Assembly (NCBI GenBank): GCA_964609895.1
Contig: CAZSTG010000004.1
Coordinates: 16,288 to 80,287 of the forward strand
Source of the DNA: an uncultured Gammaproteobacteria bacterium
GTDB taxonomy: Bacteria; Patescibacteriota; Microgenomatia; UBA10105; UBA927
Direction: 5' to 3'
DNA length: 64,000 bases
Part shown: one piece after another, positions 8,909-61,871 of the stretch
How the letters are laid out: each line of letters opens with the position of its first letter
Position numbering within the stretch: the first letter of the stretch is position 1
Notes under the pieces: generated by a model
Databases searched by the model: none
What the model saw: the letters and a program-made list of their open reading frames with translations, nothing else
Told to the model about the DNA's origin: nothing
Made by a program: the position numbers and the translations under genes

Positions 8909-10144
8909 ATGAAAAAAACAATTGCATTCAATACACTTGCACAAATTGTCGGAAAAATTATTTCCGGCGGAACTACATTTTTTGTCAGCATTCTTCTTGC
9001 ACGCGCGCTCGGCGTCGACGGATATGGAGATTTTACGAAAATTACAACCTATGTTGCCTTCTTTTATCTCTTTTGTGATTTCGGCCTGAATGCCGCGTAT
9101 CTGCAACTGAAAGAACAACATACAGCCACACAATGGAAAAATGCTTTGTTTACCTCCAGATTTATCTTCAGCATCATACTGATGTTTATCACCCTTGCAA
9201 TTATCTCGTTTCTTCCCGGATCATCTACACAGGGGTATTCAGCGATGGTTAAAATGGGTATCATTCTGTTTACGCCGACTATTCTGTTCCAAGCACTCAT
9301 TACAACAACAAATGCATTTTTTCAGGAACGACTGCGTTATGACTTCGCAGCATATGCGACAATTGCAGGATCTATCACAACGCTCTTCTGTATCCTTGCG
9401 CTGACAAAAATACTTCTTCCGGAAGCGATGGTGTTTGGAAGTTTATTTTCGTTTTTGCTCGGATCTATTGCCACAACTGTTGTTGCTCTTTTTTTTGTCA
9501 AAAAAACCGGCGCTTTGCCGTCGCTGACTGTTGATCTGCAGACAATAAAAACACTTATATCCACTGCTCTGCCATTAGGAATTACGCTGTTGTTTAATGT
9601 CGTCTATTTCAGAATAGACAGCGTTGTCCTTACCATAACTAGATCAACCGCAGAAGTCGGAACATATGGTCTTGCCTATAAGTTTTTTGAAATGACATTA
9701 ATTCTTCCGACGTTTTTTATGAATGCCGCGCTTCCGTCATTACTGCGTGCAAAAAAAGAGTCGGATATAAAAAAACTGCATGCACAAATCCGAGGATCTG
9801 GCATTACACTGTGTATTCTTTCCGTCTGTGCTGCGGTTGTAGGATGGATACTTTCCCCGCTGATTACCATGATTAAGCCAGAGTTTGCCGCAAGCATTCC
9901 TCCATTTAAAATACTACTTTTGGGTCTGCCGGTATTTTATCTGAGTTCACTTACTATGTGGGTGTTGGTCATTGAAAAAAGACGGATACAAATGTTGATA
10001 ATTTATGCACTTTCCATGACGCTCAACATCTTTGCCAACATCATACTTATTCCCTCCTATGGGTACATGGCGGCGGCAGTAATAACAATCCTTTCGGAAT
10101 TTTTCATATTGCTTACTTCATATGTTGCTATCAGACATGCTTGA
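8909..10144 (+). CDS. polysaccharide biosynthesis protein / Wzx-like oligosaccharide flippase (MOP superfamily)
   Basis: 411 aa with about 12 TM segments. Its N-terminal part reads like a MOP flippase N-terminus. Confidence 0.6.
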   Translation: MKKTIAFNTLAQIVGKIISGGTTFFVSILLARALGVDGYGDFTKITTYVAFFYLFCDFGLNAAYLQLKEQHTATQWKNALFTSRFIFSIILMFITLAIISFLPGSSTQGYSAMVKMGIILFTPTILFQALITTTNAFFQERLRYDFAAYATIAGSITTLFCILALTKILLPEAMVFGSLFSFLLGSIATTVVALFFVKKTGALPSLTVDLQTIKTLISTALPLGITLLFNVVYFRIDSVVLTITRSTAEVGTYGLAYKFFEMTLILPTFFMNAALPSLLRAKKESDIKKLHAQIRGSGITLCILSVCAAVVGWILSPLITMIKPEFAASIPPFKILLLGLPVFYLSSLTMWVLVIEKRRIQMLIIYALSMTLNIFANIILIPSYGYMAAAVITILSEFFILLTSYVAIRHA

Positions 10145-10175
10145 CAGAAACAAAGTGAAACGCGATACTTGTGCC

Positions 10176-10595
10176 ATGAACAACACGTATACTATACATA
10201 CAGACGGAGGAGCAAGAGGCAACCCAGGACCCGCTGCAATTGGCGTAGTTATTGAGAAAAACGGAACTTTGCTTGCCGAATTTGGCGAACCAATAGGGGA
10301 AACCACCAACAACGTTGCGGAATATACAGCTGTGCTCAAGGCCCTTCAGTATCTTCACGAGAAAAAGGAAACTACCGGAAACATTACATTTATTCTGGAT
10401 TCTCTTCTTGTCGTCAATCAGCTCATGGGCAAATTTAAAATCAAGGATGTAAAACTGCAAACGCTTGCATCACAGGTCGCATCTCTTGAACAACATTTTT
10501 GTGGAAAAGTTATCTACACAGCAGTCAGACGAGAACTGAACCGAAGGGCGGATTTTTTTGTAAATCAGGCACTTGACGCTTCAAGCAAACCATAA
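10176..10595 (+). CDS. rnhA: ribonuclease HI (RNase H-like)
   Basis: Start trimmed to MNNTYTIHTDGGARGNPGPAAIG. DEDD catalytic residues are present (TDGG, AEYTA, LDS, RRADF). Confidence 0.7.
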   Translation: MNNTYTIHTDGGARGNPGPAAIGVVIEKNGTLLAEFGEPIGETTNNVAEYTAVLKALQYLHEKKETTGNITFILDSLLVVNQLMGKFKIKDVKLQTLASQVASLEQHFCGKVIYTAVRRELNRRADFFVNQALDASSKP

Positions 10596-22430: not shown

Positions 22431-22502
22431 TGTCAGCGGCGGGGATCGGACCTGCGACACACGCCTTATGAAGGCGCTGCTCTACCACTGAGCTACGCTG
22501 AC
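22431..22502 (-). tRNA. tRNA-Met (anticodon CAT; elongator vs initiator vs Ile2-lysidine identity not resolvable by eye)
   Basis: Minus-strand read GTCAGCG-TA-GCTC-AGTGGTA-GAGC-A-GCGCC-TTCATAA-GGCGT-GTGTC-GCAGG-TCCGATC-CCCGC-CGCTGAC-A. Perfect 7-bp acceptor stem, U8/A9, 4-bp D-stem, U33 and A37 flanking CAT. One A-C mismatch in the T-stem and a non-canonical T-loop. Confidence 0.7.
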
Positions 22503-22512
22503 AATTGAAGCT

Positions 22513-22541
22513 ATTGTACGGGATTTACCCAGCAAAAACAA
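22513..22541 (-). promoter_or_regulatory. candidate promoter for tRNA-Met (TTGTTT - 17 bp - TACAAT on minus strand)
   Basis: Reverse complement of 22513-22541 gives TTGTTT-ttgctgggtaaatcccg-TACAAT, ending 10 nt upstream of the tRNA 5' end. Confidence 0.35.
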
Positions 22542-22743
22542 CCATTAATACAGAAGAATGTGTGGTCGTGCCGGCAAAAGATTGGTTGCCACACTCTACC
22601 CAGTCGGTTGTAGTGTTTACACCAGTTCCGAAAGGAATGTAGGTTTCTTTCAAAAAAGATGTGGCAGTGTGCCCAACACATTCACCGCCTCGCTATACAA
22701 AATGGTCAAAATCAGGTATACTCAGCTTTGTTCTTTAACGAAC

Positions 22744-22813
22744 CGCGGGGTAGTGTAAAGTTGCACAGAAGGCTCATAATCTTCTAGACCAGGTGCGATT
22801 CCTGGCTCCGCAA
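22744..22813 (+). tRNA. candidate second tRNA with CAT anticodon (non-canonical features)
   Basis: CGCGGGG-TA-GTGT-AAAGTT-GCAC-A-GAAGG-CTCATAA-TCTTC-TAGA-CCAGG-TGCGATT-CCTGG-CTCCGCA-A. Cloverleaf folds with U33/A37, a 4-nt variable loop and a 6-nt D-loop. C1 is opposite A72 (mismatch) and the T-loop TGCGATT lacks the usual TTC. A TATACT -10 element sits about 25 nt upstream. Confidence 0.4.
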
Positions 22814-22829
22814 CAAAGTTGACGACGTA

Positions 22830-22838
22830 TGCTATACT
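22830..22838 (+). promoter_or_regulatory. extended -10 promoter element (TGcTATACT)
   Basis: TG at 22830-22831 and TATACT at 22833-22838. No well-spaced -35. Would drive a short transcript toward tRNA-Trp. Confidence 0.4.
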
Positions 22839-23017
22839 AGTTGCCAAGTGAATAAATGTCACAGGAAGATTGATTGGGATCTTCCTATCGATGAAAATCG
22901 AGACTGAGAAGGCTACCTGCGCATTGAGCGAGGATGTCTGATCCAGAAGCTTACCTGTAAAAATAAAGCGCCATGTGTCGCGTTCCTGCGGAGCATGTAA
23001 TAAGATTTCTTACATGT

Positions 23018-23041
23018 CCCTCGCATAGGCGGGGGATTTTT
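23018..23041 (+). terminator. intrinsic-terminator-like hairpin (CCCTCGC-atag-GCGGGGG followed by ATTTTTGT)
   Basis: 7-bp GC-rich stem with one U-G pair, 4-nt loop and a T-rich tail. Confidence 0.45.
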
Positions 23042-23080
23042 GTAAGCGATGAAACAAGGTGGAACAGCCTTTTTATGTAG

Positions 23081-23129
23081 GCCCTTGTAAGTTACCAAAA
23101 CTATTTTGGTGATTTACAAGGGCTTTTTT
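23081..23129 (+). terminator. strong rho-independent terminator (GCCCTTGTAA ... TTACAAGGGC + TTTTTT)
   Basis: 10-bp perfect stem (23081-23090 / 23114-23123) with internal sub-hairpin, then a T6 run at 23124-23129, ending 8 nt before tRNA-Trp. Confidence 0.6.
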
Positions 23130-23136
23130 CGTTTGT

Positions 23137-23207
23137 AGGGGTGTAGTGAAACGGTATCACGGCAGTCTCCAAAACTGCTATTTCAGGTTCAAATCCTGAC
23201 ACCCCTG
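23137..23207 (+). tRNA. tRNA-Trp (anticodon CCA)
   Basis: AGGGGTG-TA-GTGA-AACGGTA-TCAC-G-GCAGT-CTCCAAA-ACTGC-TATT-TCAGG-TTCAAAT-CCTGA-CACCCCT-G. All stems perfect. Canonical TTCAAAT T-loop. U33 and A37 flank CCA. Confidence 0.85.
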
Positions 23208-23297
23208 CCTATGAATCACTATACACAAACATCGTGGAGGACATACTGGCGAAGCAATTCGTTTGTATTAACCCGTAAAAATTTTGGAAAAGGAACT

Positions 23298-24599
23298 ATG
23301 AAAAAACAAAATAATGAAATACTAGCAAAAACATATTTGAACTTACCGCACTTTTTAAAAAAGTATGGGGTAGGTTTGCCGGATCCGTATTTGCACCCAA
23401 AAACAAAAAAGGTGCTGCAACCTGAAGATCTAGCGCCAATTTTTCCGCGTGAACTCATACGACAGGAAACAACATTGAAAAAATCAGTAGTGATACCGGA
23501 TGAGGTGTATGAGCTGTATAAAACTTACAGACCATCCCCATTATTGCGGCTGCGGCGGCTTGAAAAACGGCTAGGGACGCCTGCGCATATCTATGCAAAA
23601 TATGAAGGCGTCTCGCCTGTGGGAAGCCACAAATTTAATACTGCCTTGGCACAGGCCTATTACAACAAAAAGGAGGGGATAACGACGCTCACAACGGAAA
23701 CGGGTGCAGGACAGTGGGGGTCAGCACTAACACTCGCAACAAGAATGTTTGGGATGAAGTGCATTGTCTTCATGGTGCAGAGTTCGTATGACCAAAAACC
23801 GTACAGAAAAACGGTCATGCATCTCTATGGAGGAGTGGTACATGCAAGTCCGTCGACCAACACCACTTCAGGAAGACAATTTCTTAAAGACTATCCGCAT
23901 ACGAATGGCAGTTTGGGGATGGCGATATCTGAAGCGATTGAAACTGCAGTTTGTGGTAAGAACACAAGATACGCGCTGGGCAGTGCGCTCAATCACGTGA
24001 TGCTGCATCAAACCATCATCGGTCAGGAAGCGAAAAAACAGTTAGAACAGACAGATACATGTCCTGACATAATCATCGGCTGTTGCGGAGGAGGAAGTAA
24101 TTTCGCAGGAATCGCATTTCCTTTTCTTGCGGACAAATTAGCGGGTAAAACGAAAAACACTCGCTTTATCGCAGTTGAACCAACGGCATGTCCGTCGCTC
24201 ACTAAGGGCGAGTACCGCTATGATTATGGTGATACTGCAGGGATGACACCCCTCATGAAAATGTATACCGTCGGCAGCGGATATATACCGTCGCCGATTC
24301 ATGCAGGAGGACTTCGATACCACGGAGTGGCACCACTCGTAAGTTTTTTATATCATAAAAAACTCATCGAAGCTGCCGCATATGGACAGAAAGAAGTATT
24401 TGATGCAGCAAAGCTCTTTATTGAAACCGAAGGCATTATTCCTGCACCGGAATCAGCACACGCGATTAAACATGTGTTAGTTGAAGCGCTACGGGCGAAA
24501 AAAGAAGAGAAAAAGAAAACAATTCTGTTTAATTTGTCGGGACATGGACTGTTGGATCTCGGCGCGTATGAAACATATTTGGAAGGAAAAATGAAATAA
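23298..24599 (+). CDS. trpB2: TrpB2-type tryptophan synthase beta-like PLP enzyme (stand-alone; putative indole + serine -> tryptophan)
   Basis: Start at MKKQNNEIL (RBS aaaaggaact). PLP-lysine motif GSHKFN. Gly-rich loop GCCGGGSNFAGIAF. About 433 aa, the long TrpB2 form. No trpA is adjacent. Confidence 0.65.
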   Translation: MKKQNNEILAKTYLNLPHFLKKYGVGLPDPYLHPKTKKVLQPEDLAPIFPRELIRQETTLKKSVVIPDEVYELYKTYRPSPLLRLRRLEKRLGTPAHIYAKYEGVSPVGSHKFNTALAQAYYNKKEGITTLTTETGAGQWGSALTLATRMFGMKCIVFMVQSSYDQKPYRKTVMHLYGGVVHASPSTNTTSGRQFLKDYPHTNGSLGMAISEAIETAVCGKNTRYALGSALNHVMLHQTIIGQEAKKQLEQTDTCPDIIIGCCGGGSNFAGIAFPFLADKLAGKTKNTRFIAVEPTACPSLTKGEYRYDYGDTAGMTPLMKMYTVGSGYIPSPIHAGGLRYHGVAPLVSFLYHKKLIEAAAYGQKEVFDAAKLFIETEGIIPAPESAHAIKHVLVEALRAKKEEKKKTILFNLSGHGLLDLGAYETYLEGKMK

Positions 24600-24607
24600 G
24601 AAAGAAA

Positions 24608-24632
24608 GCGGGCGGGAACATACCCCGCCCGC
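24608..24632 (+). terminator. GC-rich hairpin (GCGGGCGGG-aacatac-CCCGCCCGC) between trpB2 and trpS; weak U-tract
   Basis: Perfect 9-bp stem. The downstream ATGTATAAATAC is only partly U-rich. Could be an attenuating or processing structure rather than a full terminator. Confidence 0.4.
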
Positions 24633-24674
24633 ATGTATAAATACAAATGATACAATGAAGGAAAGGAACATTAT

Positions 24675-26045
24675 ATGAAACGAATATTGTCAGGCATCAC
24701 ACCAAGCGGGGATGGGACACTCCACATAGGAAACTATCTCGGCGCGGTAAAACAGTTTATTGACATGGCTCGCACTAATGAGTGCTTTCTTTTTGTGGCT
24801 GATTTACACGCACTCACCACTATCCAAAATAAAAATCAGTTACAAAAAAATGTAGAGTCACTCATTCTTAATGAGCTAGCTTTACTGAAAGGATTCTTAA
24901 CACCAGAAGAATTTGAAAGGCTTGTTTTTTACAGACAATCTGACCTTGCAGGAATGCATCCGGAACTGCAAACAATTCTGAACAACATAACACCGCTTGG
25001 CCTGTTAAAACGAGCGCATGCGTACAAAGACAAACTACAAAAAGACATCATGGAAGATGACATCAATGTCGGGTTATTTTGCTACCCGATTCTCATGGCA
25101 TCAGACATTCTGCTCTACAAGCCAGATCTTGTACCAGTTGGGAAAGACCAAAAACAGCATGTGGAAATTGCCAGAGATGTCGCAGAGCGGTTTAACCGCG
25201 TCTACAAAAAACAAATATTCAAACTTCCGGAACCGTTTATTCCGGAATCAGTCGCCACCATTCTTGGCACCGACGGAAAAAGGAAAATGAGCAAGTCCTT
25301 AGGAAATATCATTTCTATTTTTGAGTCCGAAGACACAATCAAAAAACAGGTAATGGCAACATACACCGATCCGACACGGGCTCACGCTACAGACGCTGGA
25401 CATATCGAAGGAAACATGGTGTTTACATACCTCGACTTTTTTGGGAAAAAGGAAAAAGTAGATGAAATGAAAAATGCGTACACGAAGGGGCAAATAGCAG
25501 ATGTTGAAGTCAAACACTATTTATATGATTCTTTGCTGAAATACTTTCAAAACGCACGCGCTGCATATGAAGAGCTTAAAAATAATCAGGGAATGGTCAA
25601 GGAAATTTTGTCAAAAGGAAAAGAAAAAGCTATAGCCGTTGCAGAACAGACAATAAAAGAGGTCAGAGAGACAATCGGACTGCAAAACATCTATTCTCTT
25701 GGGGAAAGCAAAAAAACAGTCATTTCCATCGATGATTTTGCCGCCGTAGATATCAGAGTGGGGAAGGTAGAATCCGCTGAACATGTGGAAAAAAGTGAAA
25801 AACTGATCCGTCTCCACATAAACTTTGGCAATTTAGGAAAGCGGATTATTTTCACTGGCGTCAGACAATATGGATATACGGCCGACAGCTTTATCGGAAA
25901 ACAGTTTTTCTTTATCGTGAATCTTGCCCCACGAAAGATGATGGGTGAAGAATCACAGGGAATGATCATGGCCGCTGATGCGGAGGATGGAAAACCAATA
26001 TTTTTATCAGGCGACAATCTTCCTCTTGGATCAAAAATACGGTAA
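24675..26045 (+). CDS. trpS: tryptophan--tRNA ligase fused to C-terminal Trbp111/EMAP-II-like tRNA-binding (OB-fold) domain
   Basis: HIGH-region equivalent GITPSGDGTLHIGNYLGA and KMSKSLGN. About 330-aa catalytic core. An extra C-terminal tail of about 110 aa (DIRVGKVESAEHVEKSEKLIRLHINFGN...GEESQGMIMAA) resembles the MetRS-C/Trbp111 tRNA-binding fold. Confidence 0.75.
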   Translation: MKRILSGITPSGDGTLHIGNYLGAVKQFIDMARTNECFLFVADLHALTTIQNKNQLQKNVESLILNELALLKGFLTPEEFERLVFYRQSDLAGMHPELQTILNNITPLGLLKRAHAYKDKLQKDIMEDDINVGLFCYPILMASDILLYKPDLVPVGKDQKQHVEIARDVAERFNRVYKKQIFKLPEPFIPESVATILGTDGKRKMSKSLGNIISIFESEDTIKKQVMATYTDPTRAHATDAGHIEGNMVFTYLDFFGKKEKVDEMKNAYTKGQIADVEVKHYLYDSLLKYFQNARAAYEELKNNQGMVKEILSKGKEKAIAVAEQTIKEVRETIGLQNIYSLGESKKTVISIDDFAAVDIRVGKVESAEHVEKSEKLIRLHINFGNLGKRIIFTGVRQYGYTADSFIGKQFFFIVNLAPRKMMGEESQGMIMAADAEDGKPIFLSGDNLPLGSKIR

Positions 26046-51922: not shown

Positions 51923-52030
51923 TTTCTAAACACTCATTCTCTTCACGGATACTGTACTACACTTTTAAAAGCAAAACAACCGCCCTTGTTTTTTGTGCAT
52001 TATTGACAAATTGAAATGGCAAGTTTATAT

Positions 52031-52049
52031 TGTGGATAAGTTGTCCACA
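52031..52049 (+). promoter_or_regulatory. two adjacent DnaA boxes upstream of dnaA (TGTGGATAA = perfect box on minus; TTGTCCACA one mismatch)
   Basis: 52031-52039 and 52041-52049, within 20-40 nt of the dnaA ATG at 52069. Suggests autoregulation or part of the origin. Confidence 0.6.
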
Positions 52050-52068
52050 TCTCTTGCCCTCATATATT

Positions 52069-53442
52069 ATGGAACCTCAACGGCTTTGGAAATCTGTGCT
52101 TACGGAGCTTGAGTTGTCTGTCTCAAAGGCAACGTTTCAAACGCATTTTTCTCAAAGTGACCTTCTTTCTCTCCATGATGGCGTCGCCACCATTGGACTT
52201 GCCAATCCTATGGTAAGAACCATGGTGGAAACTCGATATTATTCGCTTGTAAAAAGCATCATCGACCACAATACAAACGCCAATGTAAGCCTTGTGTTTG
52301 TCGTGGTTCCCAAAAAACAACAGCTTTCGGAAAAAGACGCGGGCCCCTTGTTCTCCCAAACAATTGATGTGCCTCGCGTGGACGCAATAAGTGCCGCCAA
52401 AAGACTGCACATTCAGCCAGAGTACACTTTTGAAACCTTTGCTGTGTCTACGACAAATCAAATCGCATATGCCGCCGCGTCTGCCGTTGCAAAAAGTCCG
52501 GGGTCCGCATACAACCCACTGTTTTTATATGGAGGCGTTGGAGTGGGGAAGACACATCTGATGCATGCGGTTGCAAACAGTATGCTTTCCAAAAAACCAG
52601 CCACGAAGGTGGTATATTGTATGGGAGAAGAGTTTTTGAATGAAATTATCGAATCAATTCAGACCAAATCTGTCAGACAATTCAAACAAAAATACAGGTC
52701 TGCAGAACTATTGTTGGTGGACGACGTACAATTTATTGCGGGAAAACAGACCGCACAGGAGGAATTTTTTCACACATTCAACGCGGTACACAGAGAGGGA
52801 GGACAGATTATTCTGACAAGCGACAGGTCGCCGGGGGAAATTTCCAGACTGGAAGACAGGCTCAGATCTCGGTTTGAAGGAGGACTTTTGGTTGACATCT
52901 CTCCGCCAGACTTTGAGCTCCGTGCGGCCATTGTCAACATCAAGGCTCGGGCGATGGGGTTACAGCTTAATACGGACGGCGCCCGCGTTGTCGCCGCAAA
53001 CTTTACAGACACAAGAGCCATTGAGGGTTTTTTAAAACGGCTCACCACGGAAGTAAGCGCGCACAAAACCGAACTTACTCCCGACTCCATAACGGCGCTT
53101 TTATCTTCGCGAGGCCAGACAAGCGGAGCGGTGCCCGCCACCAAAAGAAGGGTAACGCCGCAGGAGGTTCTAGACGCTGTTGCCAATTATTACAACATCA
53201 AGCCCTCAACCATTAAGGGGCCAAAGAGAGACAGACCCGTAGCAAGACCAAGACAGCTTATTATGTATCTGTGTAAAGTCGAGCTTGGCCTCACTCTCGA
53301 TGACATCGGCGGAATTCTTGGTGGAAGAGATCATACAACAATTATGCACGGAGTGGACCTGATTGCACACGAATTACCCACAAACGAACACTTGCGTGAG
53401 GCGGTGGGGGGGATAAAACAACAATTATGGGCCTCTTCATAA
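52069..53442 (+). CDS. dnaA: chromosomal replication initiator protein DnaA
   Basis: Start at MEPQRLWKSVLTELE. AAA+ Walker A GGVGVGKTHLMHAV. C-terminal DNA-binding domain with LTLDDIGGILGGRDHTTIMHGV. Confidence 0.9.
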   Translation: MEPQRLWKSVLTELELSVSKATFQTHFSQSDLLSLHDGVATIGLANPMVRTMVETRYYSLVKSIIDHNTNANVSLVFVVVPKKQQLSEKDAGPLFSQTIDVPRVDAISAAKRLHIQPEYTFETFAVSTTNQIAYAAASAVAKSPGSAYNPLFLYGGVGVGKTHLMHAVANSMLSKKPATKVVYCMGEEFLNEIIESIQTKSVRQFKQKYRSAELLLVDDVQFIAGKQTAQEEFFHTFNAVHREGGQIILTSDRSPGEISRLEDRLRSRFEGGLLVDISPPDFELRAAIVNIKARAMGLQLNTDGARVVAANFTDTRAIEGFLKRLTTEVSAHKTELTPDSITALLSSRGQTSGAVPATKRRVTPQEVLDAVANYYNIKPSTIKGPKRDRPVARPRQLIMYLCKVELGLTLDDIGGILGGRDHTTIMHGVDLIAHELPTNEHLREAVGGIKQQLWASS

Positions 53443-53625
53443 AGAGTTTTCCACTTATCCACAAAACGGATTTTTTTATCAACAGAGTTATCCACACTCT
53501 TTTGTCCGTCTTTTGCTCTCGCGACCTTGCTTGTTTAGAAGATTACCGCCGTTCGTTGACAAGACACCAGAAAAATCATACACTTTTCCACGCGCATTAC
53601 TATTACTACTACTTATAGAAATAAT
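53443..53625 (+). promoter_or_regulatory. probable oriC: dnaA-dnaN intergenic region with two perfect same-orientation DnaA boxes and an AT-rich unwinding element
   Basis: TTATCCACA at 53455-53463 and 53488-53496. A weaker TTGTCCGTC at 53502-53510. AT-rich tattactactacttatagaaataat at about 53590-53623. Confidence 0.65.
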
Positions 53626-54732
53626 ATGAAGTTTACGCTGTTACAAACAAATCTAATGAGCGCTCTTACAAAGACGTCTCGTATTATCTCCTCCAAGGCT
53701 CAGATTCCTGTATTACAAACCGTGCTTTTGGAAACCAAAGAGGAATTTTTATATATTGTGGGAACAAATACGGAAACAACAATAGTGACAAAAATAAACG
53801 CAAAGGTTACCCGTCAAGGAGGACTTTGTGTACCTGCGAAGATATTCCTTGAATTTATATCTACTCTTCCTGATGCACCCGTGGTTTGTGAGGAAAAAGA
53901 AGGGTCGCTTCATGTTGTGTGTGAGGGGTATGAAGCAACAATTCCAGGGGTATCAAAAAAAGAATTTCCTGAGATACCGGACGCACAAAAAGGGAAAGAA
54001 ACGGAGATTAAAAAAGATAAGTTTTTAAGAGCAATGGAGCAAGTCATCTTTTCTGCGGCAACAGATGAAGGGAGACCTATTTTAGCAGGGGTCAAAGTAA
54101 AAAAAACAGACAAAGGGGTGCTTCTGGTTACAACAGACGGATACCGACTGTCTTTAAAAAGGGAAGATGTCTCTTTTGGTGGAGAGACAGATGTTATAAT
54201 ACCTGCCAAAACGCTTACAGAGGTCATACGCATAGGAGCAGAAGAAAAAGAGAGTGAAAAGATTCTATTTAAACAGATAGCAGGGGCGCAACTGGTATTC
54301 TTTGTGGGAAACACAGAAATATACACGAGGGTAATTGACGGAGAATATCCAAACTTTGAAAAAATTCTTCCGAAGAGCCACACAACAAAAGTGGTTTTTG
54401 AAAAAGAGACGTTTTTAAGAGCGGTTAAGTCCTCCGCTTTGTTTGCAAGAGATAATGCAAATATTATAAAAATGCGCATCGAAGAAGAAAAAGTGAGTAT
54501 CTCCGCGAACGCACCGACAATCGGACAAAATAATGTTGAAATTTTTACCAACACAGAAGGGGAGGTTGGAGAAATTGCCTTTAACAGCAGATTTTTGCTG
54601 GAATTTTTAGGGAACTTTGAAGGAGAAAAAATAGCGTTTGAAATGACGGGATCATTGAATCCTGGAGTGTTTACGTCTGCGGACGGCGACGACTACCTTC
54701 ACATCATCATGCCTGTAAGAACCACAGCATAA
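53626..54732 (+). CDS. dnaN: DNA polymerase III subunit beta (sliding clamp)
   Basis: 368 aa. MKFTLLQTNLMSALTKTSRIISSK... three-domain clamp length. Directly follows dnaA. Confidence 0.85.
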   Translation: MKFTLLQTNLMSALTKTSRIISSKAQIPVLQTVLLETKEEFLYIVGTNTETTIVTKINAKVTRQGGLCVPAKIFLEFISTLPDAPVVCEEKEGSLHVVCEGYEATIPGVSKKEFPEIPDAQKGKETEIKKDKFLRAMEQVIFSAATDEGRPILAGVKVKKTDKGVLLVTTDGYRLSLKREDVSFGGETDVIIPAKTLTEVIRIGAEEKESEKILFKQIAGAQLVFFVGNTEIYTRVIDGEYPNFEKILPKSHTTKVVFEKETFLRAVKSSALFARDNANIIKMRIEEEKVSISANAPTIGQNNVEIFTNTEGEVGEIAFNSRFLLEFLGNFEGEKIAFEMTGSLNPGVFTSADGDDYLHIIMPVRTTA

Positions 54733-57940: not shown

Positions 57941-59809
57941 TTATGTCTTTGGTTGTGAGGGAATTGTCTCTACAGTAAAAAGGGGCCGATTGTCTATTGT
58001 CGGTTGGACGTTGGTGTTTTGAGAAAGCTCTTTTTTCTTCTGCACATCCTGCGGTTTTGTTGTGGCAAGTGCATGTTCTTCCGGACTGGCAATAATCCGT
58101 ATTGCCGCATGAGCGGGGCCGGCAAACAAAAGCCCCTCGCCGATTTCAGAAGAAAGAAGCAGGTGTTTTTCTCCTTCGGAAAGGTAGAAAATTTCCGCCA
58201 CCCTGTCTATTGCCGCAGTGGACTGCTTGAGGAGTATCTGCATACTGCTGTTCTGAATAATAGTTTTGCCGAGGTCTCCGGCAAGAAAATCCTCCACATC
58301 TTGGGTGATGGTGGTGAGTCCAAGGTAATATTTTCTGCTTCGTTTTGCGATAGAATTTAGAAATTGCGCAGAGTCGGGGTATTTCATAAGATACCACGCT
58401 TCATCAACTACAAGAATTCTTCTTTTGATTGACCGTCTGATTTTTGTCCAGATAAAATCGAGAATGAGATACATTGCGGTTGGTCGAAGTTCATCTTCTA
58501 GATCGCGGATCGAGAAAACCGTAAGAGGATTGGTGATTTCCATATTTGATTGTTCGTCAAAGATGCCCACCAGACTTCCTTTGACAAACTTTTCTATTCT
58601 GTCCGCAAGTGTTTTTGCCGTTTGATCCTCCATGCCCACGAGAGTTTTATACAGGTCTTCCATAAGTGGAGGCTCTTTTGATTGTGTTGCAGGATCTGGG
58701 GTAATGCCCTTTTGTTTATATGTGAGTACAAGCGCCCGGTCAAGGGTTGCGTCTTCTGTCGGCGTGAGTTTTCCCATGACAACGCGGAAAAACCCATGCA
58801 GAGAAAGAATCTTCTGATTTAAGTCGTTTTCTTCCGATCCGCCGTCTTTTAAAGCCGCAAGATCGAATGGATTGATTTTTGTTTTTCCACGGAATTCAAA
58901 CCTGATGTATTCGCCTCCGAGGGTTTCGGTCAGCGCCTCATATTCATTTTCAGGATCAATAATGATAACCTCAGAGCCAAACATCATGCTTCTGATCACT
59001 TCAAGCTTCACCATGTAGGATTTTCCTGATCCGGACTTCCCAAACACAACAGTGTTTGCGTTTTCCAAAGTGAAACGGTCGAACACCACAAGACTTTCGT
59101 TGCCCTCGTTAATGCCATAAAGTATACCTTCGTTTGCGGTAAGCTCCGATGTGGTAAACGGAAAAGTGGTGGCAAGTGAGGTCGTGTCCATGTTTCTGGT
59201 TATCATAAGCCGATCTTGCCCCATAGGAAGCGTTGTTTTAAACCCCTCTTCCATCTGTAGAATTGCTTTTTTAGTGACGATCATTAAAGATGCAAGAGTC
59301 GCCTCAACCTGTTTGGTTGTTTTATCCAGATCTTCTTTTGTTTTGGATGGAATGGTGACATACAGCCCAAACTGAAAAAACCGCTGCGCGCCCTTTGCAA
59401 GTTCCTGTTGTAGTCCTAAGGCGTCTTCTAGTGCAACTTGCACAGAAGGTTCAATGACGCGTCCGCGTTTTAGATCTGACTGAATGGTTGCTTCCATCTC
59501 TCCGACTTTACGCTTCAGGTTTTCGAGAATTTCTTCGGATTTGGACGGATACACATACATGGAAACGTCCAGTGTGTGGTTGAATGAAATAAGTGGCTCA
59601 AGCCAGTTTGCGCTGACATATCTCGGGTATCCTGCAACAAACAGCGTTCTCACCATCTGTTCACCGATGGTGAGAAAGTCAAAATCTACCTCTACTGCCG
59701 GCGGCGCGACGATATCTTTTGTTGTGAGTGGACCTGTCGGCGTCGGACCGCTGAGTAGGCTGGGCGGCTGCATGGTAATAAATGTCTTGATGGTGTTTTT
59801 GATATTCAT
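57941..59809 (-). CDS. VirB4/TrbE/CagE-family T4SS ATPase (ATPase part)
   Basis: 622 aa. Walker A VVFGKSGSGKSYMVK. Walker B region RILVVDEAWYLMK. C-terminal RSRKYYLGLTTITQ motif. Confidence 0.8.
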   Translation of the reverse strand: MNIKNTIKTFITMQPPSLLSGPTPTGPLTTKDIVAPPAVEVDFDFLTIGEQMVRTLFVAGYPRYVSANWLEPLISFNHTLDVSMYVYPSKSEEILENLKRKVGEMEATIQSDLKRGRVIEPSVQVALEDALGLQQELAKGAQRFFQFGLYVTIPSKTKEDLDKTTKQVEATLASLMIVTKKAILQMEEGFKTTLPMGQDRLMITRNMDTTSLATTFPFTTSELTANEGILYGINEGNESLVVFDRFTLENANTVVFGKSGSGKSYMVKLEVIRSMMFGSEVIIIDPENEYEALTETLGGEYIRFEFRGKTKINPFDLAALKDGGSEENDLNQKILSLHGFFRVVMGKLTPTEDATLDRALVLTYKQKGITPDPATQSKEPPLMEDLYKTLVGMEDQTAKTLADRIEKFVKGSLVGIFDEQSNMEITNPLTVFSIRDLEDELRPTAMYLILDFIWTKIRRSIKRRILVVDEAWYLMKYPDSAQFLNSIAKRSRKYYLGLTTITQDVEDFLAGDLGKTIIQNSSMQILLKQSTAAIDRVAEIFYLSEGEKHLLLSSEIGEGLLFAGPAHAAIRIIASPEEHALATTKPQDVQKKKELSQNTNVQPTIDNRPLFTVETIPSQPKT

Positions 59810-60462
59810 GGGTTTTTTTGTATTGGGTCTGTCTTTGTTGTTGGTACGACAACTCCTGGATTATACAAGGAAAAAAACAACTGTATGATTTGGTCATTTG
59901 TTAATTGTTGCGCTTTCAAACCTATTTTGGATAAGAGGCGGATAAGATGGTCTCTTTTTGGAGAAAGTGCAATAAGCGCCCGTTCAAAGATATACGCTTT
60001 GGGATACGGAAGCCCGCTTGTTTTTGTCCCAAGAAGCACTTTTGACGAAACGCCAAGTTCCAGATTGGAAAATGGTACGACAATATAAAATTTTTTATCG
60101 AGAACCTCTTTTTCCTTGACTGTCTGTTCAATAAAGGCTCTGTATCCATGGATGCTTTTGGCAAGTTTTGGATTGGTTTGTTCCCGCTCCTTTTCTTCCA
60201 AAAGCCGAAGATACGCGCTCACGTCTTTGTGTTTGGATCTGATAAGAATTTGAATTGGAAAAGACAGGGAGTTGAGTAGGTTGGCATAGGAATAGATAAT
60301 AACTTCCTGCTCCTTTTCAGACAACAGGCTGAAGTTGACCGCGGACACGCTGATAATGAGCGCACAGGATCCATTGGAGAACAGAATGATATTCTGCGCA
60401 ACATCCTCAATCTCGGTAAACTGTTGAGTGGATGCTCTGATTGGTACCACAGAATTTGCCAT
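59806..60462 (-). CDS. hypothetical protein resembling the N-terminal domain of VirB4/TrbE (possible split VirB4)
   Basis: 218 aa, no TM. Pattern EDVAQNIILFSNGSCALIISVSAVNFSLLSEKEQEVIIYSYANLLNSLSFPIQIL resembles the VirB4 N-terminal domain. ATGA overlap with the ATPase ORF. Confidence 0.45.
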   Translation of the reverse strand: MANSVVPIRASTQQFTEIEDVAQNIILFSNGSCALIISVSAVNFSLLSEKEQEVIIYSYANLLNSLSFPIQILIRSKHKDVSAYLRLLEEKEREQTNPKLAKSIHGYRAFIEQTVKEKEVLDKKFYIVVPFSNLELGVSSKVLLGTKTSGLPYPKAYIFERALIALSPKRDHLIRLLSKIGLKAQQLTNDQIIQLFFSLYNPGVVVPTTKTDPIQKNP

Positions 60463-60463
60463 A

Positions 60464-61741
60464 TTATGTATTGGTTGTTTGTCCGAAAATTTGTTTTACC
60501 AGCACTTCGCGGTCAATATCCCGTTTGCTTTTTGCCACAATCTCAATTGCGGGAAGCACGGATCCATTCAGGGTGATTTGTGCGCGGTCAAATATATATC
60601 GTCCTCGGGGATCTTCAACCTCAATAAAAAATATGCCGTTTGGCAGTTGTGTTGAGGCGGCAAACTGCCCGATTTTGTTGGTTTTGAGCGCGCGGAGCGG
60701 TACCCCCTCTTTGTCGCGGACGGTTACGAGCACCCCTGGAAGGAGACCTCCTTGGTTGTCTTTGATAATGCCTGTGACCACGTTTGCAAACGTTGTGAGT
60801 CTGGGAAGCCCTGCGCGGGTTGCCGCATCGGGTGATATGATTTTTACCGTCGGCCCCGCGGGGGGTGGAGTTACTACTCCTGCGGGTTTTGCGGGCGCAA
60901 CCGGTTCTTTTAGTGTTGTTTTGGTTTTCATAGATATAATCCGCTCTTCCATTTCCTGTTTTTGTTTTTTGATTTCGCTGATTTCCTTTTGTAATTCTAA
61001 CACCCTGTCTTCAACATTGGTTTTTCCACTTAACTCGGTTTGTAGTTTAGATATCTGCTCCTGCAGTTTTTCAAGTTCAGGATTTTTTTCCGTTGCAATA
61101 ATAGGAGGCCGCATTCCCTGCGCCGTGGGAGGTGGTGTTGTCTGTGCAGCCGGCGGATTCATGCGCACGGCGTCAGCAACACGAGCTGTGTTTATAACGG
61201 TTGCAGAAGGTTGAGGGTGTGGAGGTGGAAACAGCGTATCCACCCATGAAAACAGCGAATCAATCAACGATTTTTTGCGGGGCGCTGCGGATTGTGTATA
61301 AAATCCCTGCAGTGCCGCGGCTATCGGTTTTGCTGCACCCTGTTGAGTAGGGGTGGACGGTGTCGGTTGCGCAGCGTGTGGAACAACTGGGGCAGTAGCT
61401 ACCCCTGCAGATGTTGGAACAGGTGGGGGTGTTATGGGTTTTTGGGGGGTGGGTTGGGTTCTGTGCCAGACAAACTGTGTCGGCGCATACACGCTTTTTA
61501 AGAAAGACAGCACCCACACATCCATCGGGCGCTCTTCTATGGGGATAAAGGCAAACCCGATGCCGAGGAACGCAAAAATAACCGTAAGTGGCCATGTAAA
61601 AAAGAACGGAAGTGGAAGAATATAGGAAATGTAGGCAAGTATAGCTCCGCCCGCAAGGTATCCGAACTGTTTAATCGTCATGTCTCCGATTAAACGGAAC
61701 TGAAAAGTCGTGACATTTTGCGGGACAGGATGTTGTTCCAT
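60464..61741 (-). CDS. PrgI/VirB3-like two-TM protein fused to Pro-rich linker, coiled-coil and C-terminal beta-sandwich-like domain
   Basis: Start at MEQHPVPQNVTTFQFRLIGDMTIKQFGYLAGGAILAYISYILPLPFFF (PrgI-family N-terminus). Long P/T/A-rich segment. Coiled-coil LEKLQEQISKLQTELSGK. The track ORF starts at TTG at 61837. Confidence 0.5.
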   Translation of the reverse strand: MEQHPVPQNVTTFQFRLIGDMTIKQFGYLAGGAILAYISYILPLPFFFTWPLTVIFAFLGIGFAFIPIEERPMDVWVLSFLKSVYAPTQFVWHRTQPTPQKPITPPPVPTSAGVATAPVVPHAAQPTPSTPTQQGAAKPIAAALQGFYTQSAAPRKKSLIDSLFSWVDTLFPPPHPQPSATVINTARVADAVRMNPPAAQTTPPPTAQGMRPPIIATEKNPELEKLQEQISKLQTELSGKTNVEDRVLELQKEISEIKKQKQEMEERIISMKTKTTLKEPVAPAKPAGVVTPPPAGPTVKIISPDAATRAGLPRLTTFANVVTGIIKDNQGGLLPGVLVTVRDKEGVPLRALKTNKIGQFAASTQLPNGIFFIEVEDPRGRYIFDRAQITLNGSVLPAIEIVAKSKRDIDREVLVKQIFGQTTNT

Positions 61742-61871
61742 AGAACTCTCTTTATTGTAAAGAACAATAAGCGGTCTTTCAAGGGGAAAAAGCGCGTTAG
61801 AATCGTGAAAACTTATTATTTTCATTTCACGAAACAAATCAAAACACTTTTTATTATGATATGATTACTTC

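Follow-up and report, generated by a model that had tools for sequence, protein, structure and literature searches.

The 64-kb window analysed here (64,000 nucleotides of contig CAZSTG010000004.1, assembly GCA_964609895.1) carries a tryptophan locus with a structured leader, a tRNA-Trp gene, a stand-alone trpB2 and a trpS encoding a tryptophanyl-tRNA synthetase (TrpRS) with a C-terminal tRNA-binding domain. The locus, from a Candidatus Gottesmanbacteria bacterium, is likely an operon for tryptophan homeostasis under T-box control. Judged from sequence and comparison, the leader is a divergent, Trp-specific T-box riboswitch unrecognised by Rfam. More tentatively, with a chance a little short of even, the locus represents a class of T-box from the candidate phyla radiation (CPR) that had gone unrecognised, one that pairs transcriptional control with an ultrashort Stem I, whose first gene is that of its own ligand tRNA-Trp and whose leader peptide is a second checkpoint. 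An initial annotation had named the leader, tRNA-Trp, trpB2 and the TrpRS with its C-terminal domain, and each of them is real and lies where it had been placed. The annotation had seen the strong structure of the leader but missed its T-box identity, the organising principle of the locus. The divergent CPR T-box class, its placement before its own tRNA and a second, peptide-based Trp element go beyond that account, as does the mechanism proposed below.

The closest TrpRS proteins (65-91% identity) belong to metagenome-assembled genomes of Candidatus Gottesmanbacteria and the Microgenomates group, which places the window in the Patescibacteria/CPR. Related loci compared with the window locus are labelled L001, L002 and so on. 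The order leader, tRNA-Trp, trpB2, trpS is repeated in the independent Gottesmanbacteria contigs L001, L082, L162, L164, L105 and L094. The clustering of Trp genes is therefore not a matter of chance. T-boxes are textbook regulators of Gram-positive bacteria. A literature search found no report of T-boxes in CPR, Patescibacteria or Microgenomates. The leader comprises the following features:

22819-22838, plus strand: promoter-like element, TTGACG (22819-22824), an 8-nt gap and the extended -10 box TGCTATACT (22830-22838)
22839-23131, plus strand: predicted T-box riboswitch leader, specific for Trp, with a short Stem I and a transcriptional mode of action (fold, covariation, covariance model R1)
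22863-22886, plus strand: Stem I hairpin, 24 nt, with an 8-bp stem AGGAAGAU/AUCUUCCU and an 8-nt terminal loop UGAUUGGG
22875-22877, plus strand: specifier UGG in the Stem I terminal loop, followed by the purine G22878
22944-22969, plus strand: Stem IIA/B-like pseudoknot, CAG (22944-6) with CUG (22955-7), and loop GCUU (22949-52) paired with AAGC (22966-9)
22972-22997, plus strand: conserved hairpin CAUGUGUCGC/GCGGAGCAUG with an invariant UGU/GAG internal loop
23017-23036, plus strand: Stem III-like hairpin UCCCUCGC-AUAG-GCGGGGGA, a hairpin at the same place in all aligned leaders
23054-23088, plus strand: T-box sequence and antiterminator with helices A1 (23055-59/23083-87) and A2 (23067-69/23080-82)
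23060-66, plus strand: 7-nt antiterminator bulge UGGAACA between helices A1 and A2
23079-23129, plus strand: intrinsic terminator, hairpin 23079-23125 with a 20-22-bp stem, then U6

The 322-nt spacer (22815-23136) between an initiator-like tRNA-Met and tRNA-Trp folds with -115 kcal/mol (z = -6.1, 0 of 100 shuffles). In an RNAalifold consensus of 10 homologous leaders, 17 of the 53 pairs show compensatory changes. The T-box core GGUGGAACAGCC was found in the window leader by eye and comparative analysis. The 3' part reads AACAAGG-UGGAACA-GCC...GGC-CCUUG, with AACAAGG-UGGAACA-GCC at 23053-23069; the T-box bulge of relatives is UGGCACC, UGGCACA or UGGUACA. A motif scan and look-ups of closer relatives gave 13 further T-box loci beyond the window. 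In 17 related loci, the core GGUGGNAC with a terminator stands 5' of a trp gene, trpS or another.

Antiterminator and terminator were compared in 13 aligned discriminator regions. The antiterminator is paired in 98.3% of cells and has compensatory changes at four of nine pairs. The terminator has 21 pairs, is paired in 95.6% of cells and shows compensatory changes at 11/21 pairs. Covariation score and percentage paired were reached by none of 500 shuffles, and the signal was lost in slid controls. One strand serves both as 3' arm of the antiterminator and as 5' arm of the terminator, so the two helices are mutually exclusive. The shared strand covaries with both partners, as is expected of a switch. 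Covariance model R1, built from the discriminator regions of T-box loci, has exactly one match in the window (92.4 bits) and recovers the non-seed members L002, L094, L083 and L088. With this model, no second T-box was present in the window, for example at valS or at a class II synthetase gene, and 702 kb of sequence surrounding trpS in other phyla contained none.

The promoter-like element precedes the leader directly. TTGAC-N8/9-TGnTATACT is kept at the same place in L001, L007, L008, L082, L162, L163, L164 and L002, and the TTGACG with the extended -10 box is a candidate leader promoter. The spacing is unusual: the TTGAC box lies 8-9 nt from the -10 hexamer, versus the usual 17. A leader without riboswitch function, either a gene for a small RNA or a spacer with the terminator that serves the upstream tRNA-Met gene, is hardly credible. 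For the leader all Rfam families stay below threshold, the whole window at the gathering threshold and 22500-23320 at E<=10 yielding tRNAs and chance matches alone, and the hairpin 23079-23125 taken by itself is an ordinary terminator. Against such a reading stand the conserved promoter motif of the leader's own, 3' of tRNA-Met, and the presence of a T-box core, a covarying antiterminator, a UGG specifier and a pseudoknot. The leader also always lies 5' of Trp genes, even where no tRNA-Met is nearby (L002, L003, L085).

The specificity of the T-box for tryptophan is read from Stem I, and the specifier agrees with the genes that follow in the various loci, namely tRNA-Trp, trpB2, trpBA and trpS. 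A short hairpin with UGG and a purine (G or A) in the terminal loop was present in 14 of 14 leaders, and its stems covary. MAFFT misaligned the 5' third of the two Stem I variants; Stem I was therefore compared by a hairpin search. In the variant of L001, L161, L008, L085, L105 and L094, a textbook K-turn (GC-GAU/GUU-GA...GA-GC) lies under Stem I. In the variant of the window, a 3-bp helix (22858-60/22902-04) closes a three-way junction instead. The IIA/B-like pseudoknot is paired in 91% of cells, with compensatory changes at three of four pseudoknot pairs and 0 of 500 shuffles reaching its score. All nine pairs of the hairpin 22972-22997 are 100% paired in 10 sequences, four with compensatory changes. 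This hairpin could be an analogue of the Stem II/S-turn.

The element resembles the class I T-boxes of Firmicutes (B. subtilis trpS/tyrS, RF00230) in the 7-nt UGGN-AC(C/A) bulge, the antiterminator competing with an intrinsic terminator and U-run, the specifier codon with its purine, the IIA/B pseudoknot, Stem III, and the place 5' of an aminoacyl-tRNA synthetase gene or amino-acid supply operon. Unlike class I, Stem I is a hairpin of 20-28 nt with the specifier in the terminal loop, and AG bulge, distal loop and elbow platform are all missing. Between pseudoknot and Stem III there is one more conserved hairpin. The element also differs in scoring far below the Rfam threshold, in its CPR host and in having the cognate tRNA as the first downstream gene. 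A truncated Stem I is shared with the class II ileS T-boxes of Actinobacteria (Sherwood et al. 2015; 6UFG/6UFM), as reviewed in PMC7583486. In these T-boxes and in relatives of the window it consists of K-turn, short helix and specifier loop, and lacks an elbow-binding platform. Both also rely on downstream elements of the Stem II region and on the IIA/B pseudoknot. The ileS T-boxes sequester a Shine-Dalgarno sequence, whereas a transcription terminator is predicted here; amino acid (Trp, not Ile), middle-domain arrangement and phylum differ as well. The same review names an ultrashort Stem I as a feature of translational actinobacterial T-boxes. The predicted window element unites an ultrashort Stem I with transcriptional control, which has been described as atypical.

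Downstream of the leader, the genes and their control elements are arranged as follows:

23137-23209, plus strand: tRNA-Trp, anticodon CCA, with A1-U72 and G73; the CC of the 3' end is encoded, the final A is not
23211-23297, plus strand: upstream open reading frame (uORF) with Trp codons (MNHYTQTSWRTYWRSNS...), UGG at 23235-37 and 23247-49, hairpin at 23248-63
23298-24599, plus strand: trpB2, a stand-alone TrpB2-type PLP enzyme of 433 aa, by family models and solved relatives
24608-24632, no strand assigned: GC-rich hairpin after the trpB2 stop, without a U-run on the plus strand
24648-24656, plus strand: promoter-like TGATACAAT, an extended -10-like motif 27 nt 5' of the trpS start
24675-25682, plus strand: catalytic body of trpS, aa 1-336, with HIGN (TLHIGN) and KMSKS read in the translation
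25710-26045, plus strand: C-terminal OB-fold domain of the Trbp111/MetRS-C type, aa ~346-456, stop codon included

The tRNA-Trp(CCA) gene (23137-23207/9) was called by ARAGORN and by Infernal with the Rfam tRNA model (66 bits). It starts 7 nt past the U-run of the terminator. A tRNA-Trp adjoins the T-box in 10 of 17 T-box loci (window, L162, L163, L164, L082, L083, L102, L105, L094 and the disrupted L001), and in these adjacent loci the tRNA starts 4-15 nt from the end of the R1 match. Between U-run and tRNA there are 0-12 nt in the window, L162, L163, L164, L082, L102 and L083. The lineage promoter motif TGnTATACT is present 5' of the leader and was not found between terminator and tRNA. Since the tRNA directly follows the T-box terminator, the riboswitch probably controls the gene of its own ligand, and production of tRNA-Trp by read-through is the simplest reading. 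A literature search found no precedent for a T-box 5' of a tRNA gene.

It is rather improbable that the T-box, although real, regulates the protein genes only, with tRNA-Trp made from a separate promoter overlapping the terminator and the adjacency an inherited synteny. For an essential tRNA it looks risky to have its sole gene behind a strong terminator, promoters of CPR are poorly known, no tRNA follows the T-box in 7 of 17 loci, and the U-run after the terminator hairpin is interrupted in L105 and L094. The gap of just 0-12 nt in seven loci speaks against a separate promoter; moreover, the lineage motif TGnTATACT/TGATACAAT was not found in the terminator, and the adjacency is kept down to ~60-70% TrpRS identity.

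One locus has a rearranged tRNA gene. In L001:2325-2567, the orthologue of the window tRNA-Trp is split near the anticodon loop by an insert of ~185 nt. Within the insert, inverted repeats flank a second tRNA-Trp(CCA) (2433-2504), which is intact and differs from the split one; the arrangement may reflect an insertion, an intron or a replacement.

The tRNA is closely joined to the next reading frame. The junction ..CCUG-CC-U-AUG (window 23207-23213) is kept in six loci, the window, L162, L164, L105, L082 and L083. In these, the first ORF after tRNA-Trp starts 3 nt past the discriminator base G73 and lacks a Shine-Dalgarno sequence. Once the 3' end of the tRNA has been processed, the mRNA would be nearly leaderless, as the sequence suggests.

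This first ORF is the Trp-codon uORF of the window. A uORF with the motif ..(W)..G-R-E-Y-W-R.. lies directly 5' of trpB2 in 12 of 12 trpB2 loci; peptides are MNHYTQTSWRTYWRSNS.. in the window, and MKYIKHKPWKDYWRKYSLA in L164 and MYIYLFWKSLGREYWRHKAVFWVLY in L008, both followed by a stop. The uORFs have 14-53 codons and, in 11 of the 12 loci, 1-3 UGG. Conserved codons vary synonymously (GGA/GGC/GGG, AGG/CGG, GAA/GAG, UAC/UAU, CGA/CGC/CGG), which indicates selection on the peptide or at least on translation. All folded loci have a small predicted hairpin that covaries and whose 5' arm consists of the GG-CG in UGG-CGN. The element could act by stalling at UGG when Trp-tRNA is scarce, or by a nascent-peptide effect. 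Trp attenuation leaders, such as E. coli trpL, are likewise short, UGG-rich ORFs directly 5' of a Trp-biosynthesis gene, in which an Arg codon follows and a hairpin begins at the UGG-CGN codons. Candidate trp attenuation leader peptides have been described in Actinobacteria (PMC1262725). Unlike in trp attenuators, neither a terminator/antiterminator (1:2 / 2:3 / 3:4) nor an alternative that sequesters a Shine-Dalgarno sequence was found for the uORF. The peptide motif G-R-E-Y-W-R itself is conserved, and the uORF starts 3 nt after the tRNA 3' end without a Shine-Dalgarno sequence and is paired with a T-box in the operon.

In the window and in L162, the uORF stop codon is lost. The window uORF runs in frame into trpB2, and gene callers consequently give a protein of 462 aa. 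That the ATG at 23211 is the true TrpB2 start and the uORF an N-terminal extension has little probability, despite the open frame from 23211 and the automatic annotation of 462 aa. In 10 of 11 other loci the uORF stops 19-53 nt before the trpB2 ATG or overlaps it out of frame (L162, L007), and in the twelfth locus, L083, it ends at a UGA that replaces the key UGG. A ribosome-binding site AAAGGAA and the start MKKQ at 23298 are kept in relatives, alignments to TrpB2 family models begin at residue 28 in the 433-aa form, and the caller of L162 gave 433 aa. The uORF was rejected as the real TrpB2 N-terminus on the stops in relatives and the conserved ribosome-binding site and MKKQ.

The 23298 product belongs to TrpB2, as had been proposed, and not to the cysteine or threonine synthases. 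It scored 664.7 bits with NCBIfam NF009057 (cut-off 366) and 602.9 bits with TIGR01415 (cut-off 518.85), against 157 bits with TrpB1 TIGR00263 (cut-off 392) and <55 bits with threonine/cysteine synthase models. The best solved relatives are the archaeal TrpB2 6hul_B (447 bits) and 4qys_B (390 bits); TrpB1 reached ~130. As in the TrpB2 family (S. solfataricus TrpB2i/TrpB2a, T. maritima TrpB2), scores exceed the equivalog cut-offs and the gene is encoded away from trpA. The setting within a T-box/tRNA/trpS operon, with a Trp leader peptide in front, differs from known TrpB2. A high affinity for indole and use of O-phospho-L-serine are attributed to TrpB2 enzymes (Hettwer and Sterner 2002; Busch et al. 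2014, as cited in PMC11917138). By family knowledge, the trpB2 product would make Trp from indole and O-phosphoserine or serine. No trpA, C, D, E, F or G was found in the 64-kb window by a Pfam scan of 42 further ORFs and by neighbour annotation, so the description of trpB2 as standing alone holds for the window.

The slot between T-box/tRNA and trpS has a variable content:

Window, L162, L164, L001, L105, L094: uORF-trpB2
L082, L083, L007, L008: SerK-like ORF and uORF-trpB2
L002: trpB-trpA
L102 (and L004, no T-box detected): Asp/Glu-type racemase
L161, L163: nothing

The SerK-like gene is a 133-aa ParB-N-like ORF between T-box/tRNA and uORF-trpB2 (L007:2109-2507, L008:2101-2499, L082:1780-2118, L083:735-1130, L090:213-548). 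Its best NCBIfam matches are the free-serine kinases SerK (51-53 bits, E ~1e-14, cut-off 380) and SbnI, both far below the cut-offs, and the match covers the N-terminal half only. The ORF may supply O-phosphoserine to TrpB2, which the match fits and does not prove. A SerK-like gene was sought in the window and none was found.

The gene content had been interpreted as an indole-salvage-to-charging unit. On this view, channelling in an auxotroph would explain why the genes for TrpB2, tRNA-Trp and TrpRS lie together, the leader would be no more than a structured 5' region of a generic kind, and the Trbp111 domain would make up for a poorly recognised tRNA. This is unlikely, though several observations fit it. 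The gene identities are correct, the 64-kb window has no other trp genes, the order tRNA-trpB2-trpS recurs in several relatives, and a putative SerK/SbnI-like kinase adjoins trpB2 in L007, L008, L082 and L083, which fits a self-contained Trp-making cassette. However, trpB2 is missing from the slot in L161 and L163, whose TrpRS are 91% and 82% identical to that of the window, and other relatives have trpBA or a racemase there. This makes trpB2 an optional passenger and no fixed partner of trpS, which has a promoter-like motif of its own. The leader is specifically a T-box by the comparisons above. The identity elements of tRNA-Trp (A1-U72/G73/CCA) are ordinary bacterial ones, which leaves weak recognition without direct support. 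The reading as a salvage unit is supported in part only.

The promoter-like motif TGATACAAT occurs at the same distance from trpS in the window, L001, L082, L161, L162, L094 and L081, and nearby in L007, L083, L164, L096 and L088 (at least 11 loci overall). Probably, trpS has its own constitutive promoter beside any read-through from the T-box. The hairpin after trpB2 is found at the same place in L162, L164, L082, L007, L008 and L094.

The TrpRS ORF (24675-26045) scored 277.3 bits with TIGR00233 (cut-off 176.75) and 192.9 bits with PF00579. The C-terminal extension had been predicted to be a tRNA-binding OB-fold, and the models agree: PF01588 tRNA_bind matched aa 360-444 (65.9 bits, cut-off 27), TIGR00399 metG_C_term reached 102.9 bits, and the last 117 aa match MetRS-beta 8vtz (1.4e-21) and Trbp111 1pyb (1.6e-21). 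Trbp111, the MetRS C-domain and the EMAPII-like domain of TyrRS (PF01588) have the same OB-fold, C-terminal on a class I synthetase. Eukaryotic TyrRS, the sister enzyme, bears a related EMAPII-like domain, and 1ntg matches with E 3.6e-6. The host enzyme differs from these cases: it is a bacterial TrpRS, and some relatives add an N-terminal YbaK-type domain. By analogy with Trbp111 and the MetRS C-domain, the domain should raise tRNA affinity, and with it aminoacylation efficiency, via elbow binding. A literature search found no description of a TrpRS-Trbp111 fusion.

The fusion had been called uncommon. Globally this is so: ~6 of the best 150 representatives (one per 50%-identity cluster) span TrpRS and tRNA_bind, the others being mostly ordinary TrpRS of 320-340 aa, several with an N-terminal extension of 160-170 aa. 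Within the lineage, however, the fusion is the rule, with a C-terminal tRNA_bind in 120 of the best 120 TrpRS clusters at 90% identity. PF04073, an editing domain of the YbaK type, is present in about a fifth of these clusters; in L002 and L003 it stands at the N-terminus. The three-domain proteins YbaK-TrpRS-tRNA_bind are encoded at L002:3509-5473 and L003:3494-5356. In L004 and L102, an Asp/Glu-type racemase gene is located just 5' of trpS. YbaK domain and racemase may be linked to quality control of D-amino acids or mischarging.

Several points weigh against a T-box operon as proposed here. The Rfam T-box did not match the window leader (22500-23320 searched) even at E<=10. RF00230 does align end to end with L007, which speaks for a T-box, but the 17.3 bits stay below the gathering threshold of 93. 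Both outcomes fit the lack of a long Stem I. A long Stem I with an elbow-binding platform (AG bulge and distal loop) is absent in the window, and a K-turn was sought at the Stem I base of the window's own variant and could not be placed. According to PMC7583486, transcriptional T-boxes generally need a long Stem I with this platform, which is missing here. The fourth base of the bulge is an A in the window, L162, L163 and L164 and gives a G.A mismatch with G73 instead of pairing. Elsewhere this base is U in two loci and C in others, and all adjoining tRNA-Trp genes have G73. According to TBDB (PMC7778990), Trp T-boxes have C or U at the discriminator-pairing base (U, a G.U wobble, in 46%) and not A. 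A cryptic tRNA promoter inside the terminator is conceivable. After the uORF, no terminator, antiterminator or fold sequestering the Shine-Dalgarno sequence was found in 8 folded loci, where z-scores were -0.4 to -1.7. The uORF of L083 (1133-1174) has a UGA at the conserved UGG (MNKFVIKTKGREY-UGA-RSNS); the 3' arm of its hairpin carries a compensating change, so that the RNA hairpin is kept and the Trp codon lost. Finally, transcription from the T-box may stop at the GC hairpin that follows trpB2 and not reach trpS.

The T-box operon remains the favoured interpretation, and its working can be outlined. The UGG in the Stem I loop and the alternative antiterminator and terminator were established by sequence and comparison; the response to tRNA follows the established T-box mechanism, and the steps are proposed from sequence, covariation and family knowledge. 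Transcription probably starts just past the -10 box (22833-22838). The nascent leader would expose the UGG specifier in the short Stem I loop, and its 3' part would form antiterminator or terminator. Uncharged tRNA-Trp would pair with the leader at two sites, by the CCA anticodon at UGG and by the free NCCA end at the bulge 5'-UGGA-3'. This pairing would stabilise the antiterminator and let RNA polymerase read through. Charged tRNA-Trp would be unable to pair, and transcription would halt at 23129. Read-through would first yield the tRNA-Trp gene itself, which appears to have no room for its own promoter. Next comes the Trp-codon uORF, probably a translation-level check on Trp-tRNA supply before trpB2. 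Then trpB2 would be transcribed and probably trpS. The Trbp111-type domain of TrpRS would raise affinity for tRNA by analogy with MetRS.

Beyond the Trp locus, the window encodes dnaA-dnaN, many glycosyltransferases and TraG/PrgI-like genes. The dnaA-dnaN genes (52030-54732, plus strand) are ~27 kb from the Trp locus, and with them the window probably takes in the replication origin region. A TraG-like P-loop ATPase and PrgI-family genes, similar to type IV secretion or conjugation systems, lie near the 3' end (57941-61837, minus strand) and are adjoined by large ORFs of unassigned function. A stand-alone ORF of the RNase H / RVT_3 type (10122-10595, plus strand, 157 aa) follows polysaccharide-synthesis genes. 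Just 5' of the leader, a tRNA(CAU) at 22744-22814 (plus strand) is initiator-like by its C1xA72 mismatch and lacks the three G-C pairs of the initiator anticodon stem. The same tRNA(CAU) has a group I intron (Rfam RF00028) in the anticodon loop in L161 (3026-3233, 75.9 bits) and L164 (1422-1605, 63.3 bits), and by sequence likewise in L163. The window copy is intron-free.

If the proposed operon is true, uncharged tRNA-Trp induces its own synthesis together with its charging enzyme and a Trp-making enzyme. The locus would be a self-contained homeostat of tRNA, synthetase and amino acid in a minimal genome. A working platform-free transcriptional T-box would call into question the view that a long Stem I is required for fast co-transcriptional capture of tRNA. 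There might be a connection between two changes, the riboswitch losing its elbow platform and TrpRS acquiring a Trbp111 domain that binds the elbow. Control of a tRNA gene by the riboswitch that senses this tRNA would be new as a regulatory topology. The YWR leader peptide and the TrpRS-Trbp111 and YbaK-TrpRS-Trbp111 fusions would be further oddities of the same system. As a compact natural tRNA-responsive switch, the leader could serve as a genetic tool in Patescibacteria. For the biology of these organisms, the operon would provide a handle on the balance of tRNA, synthetase and amino acid in ultra-small genomes that are poor in transcription factors.

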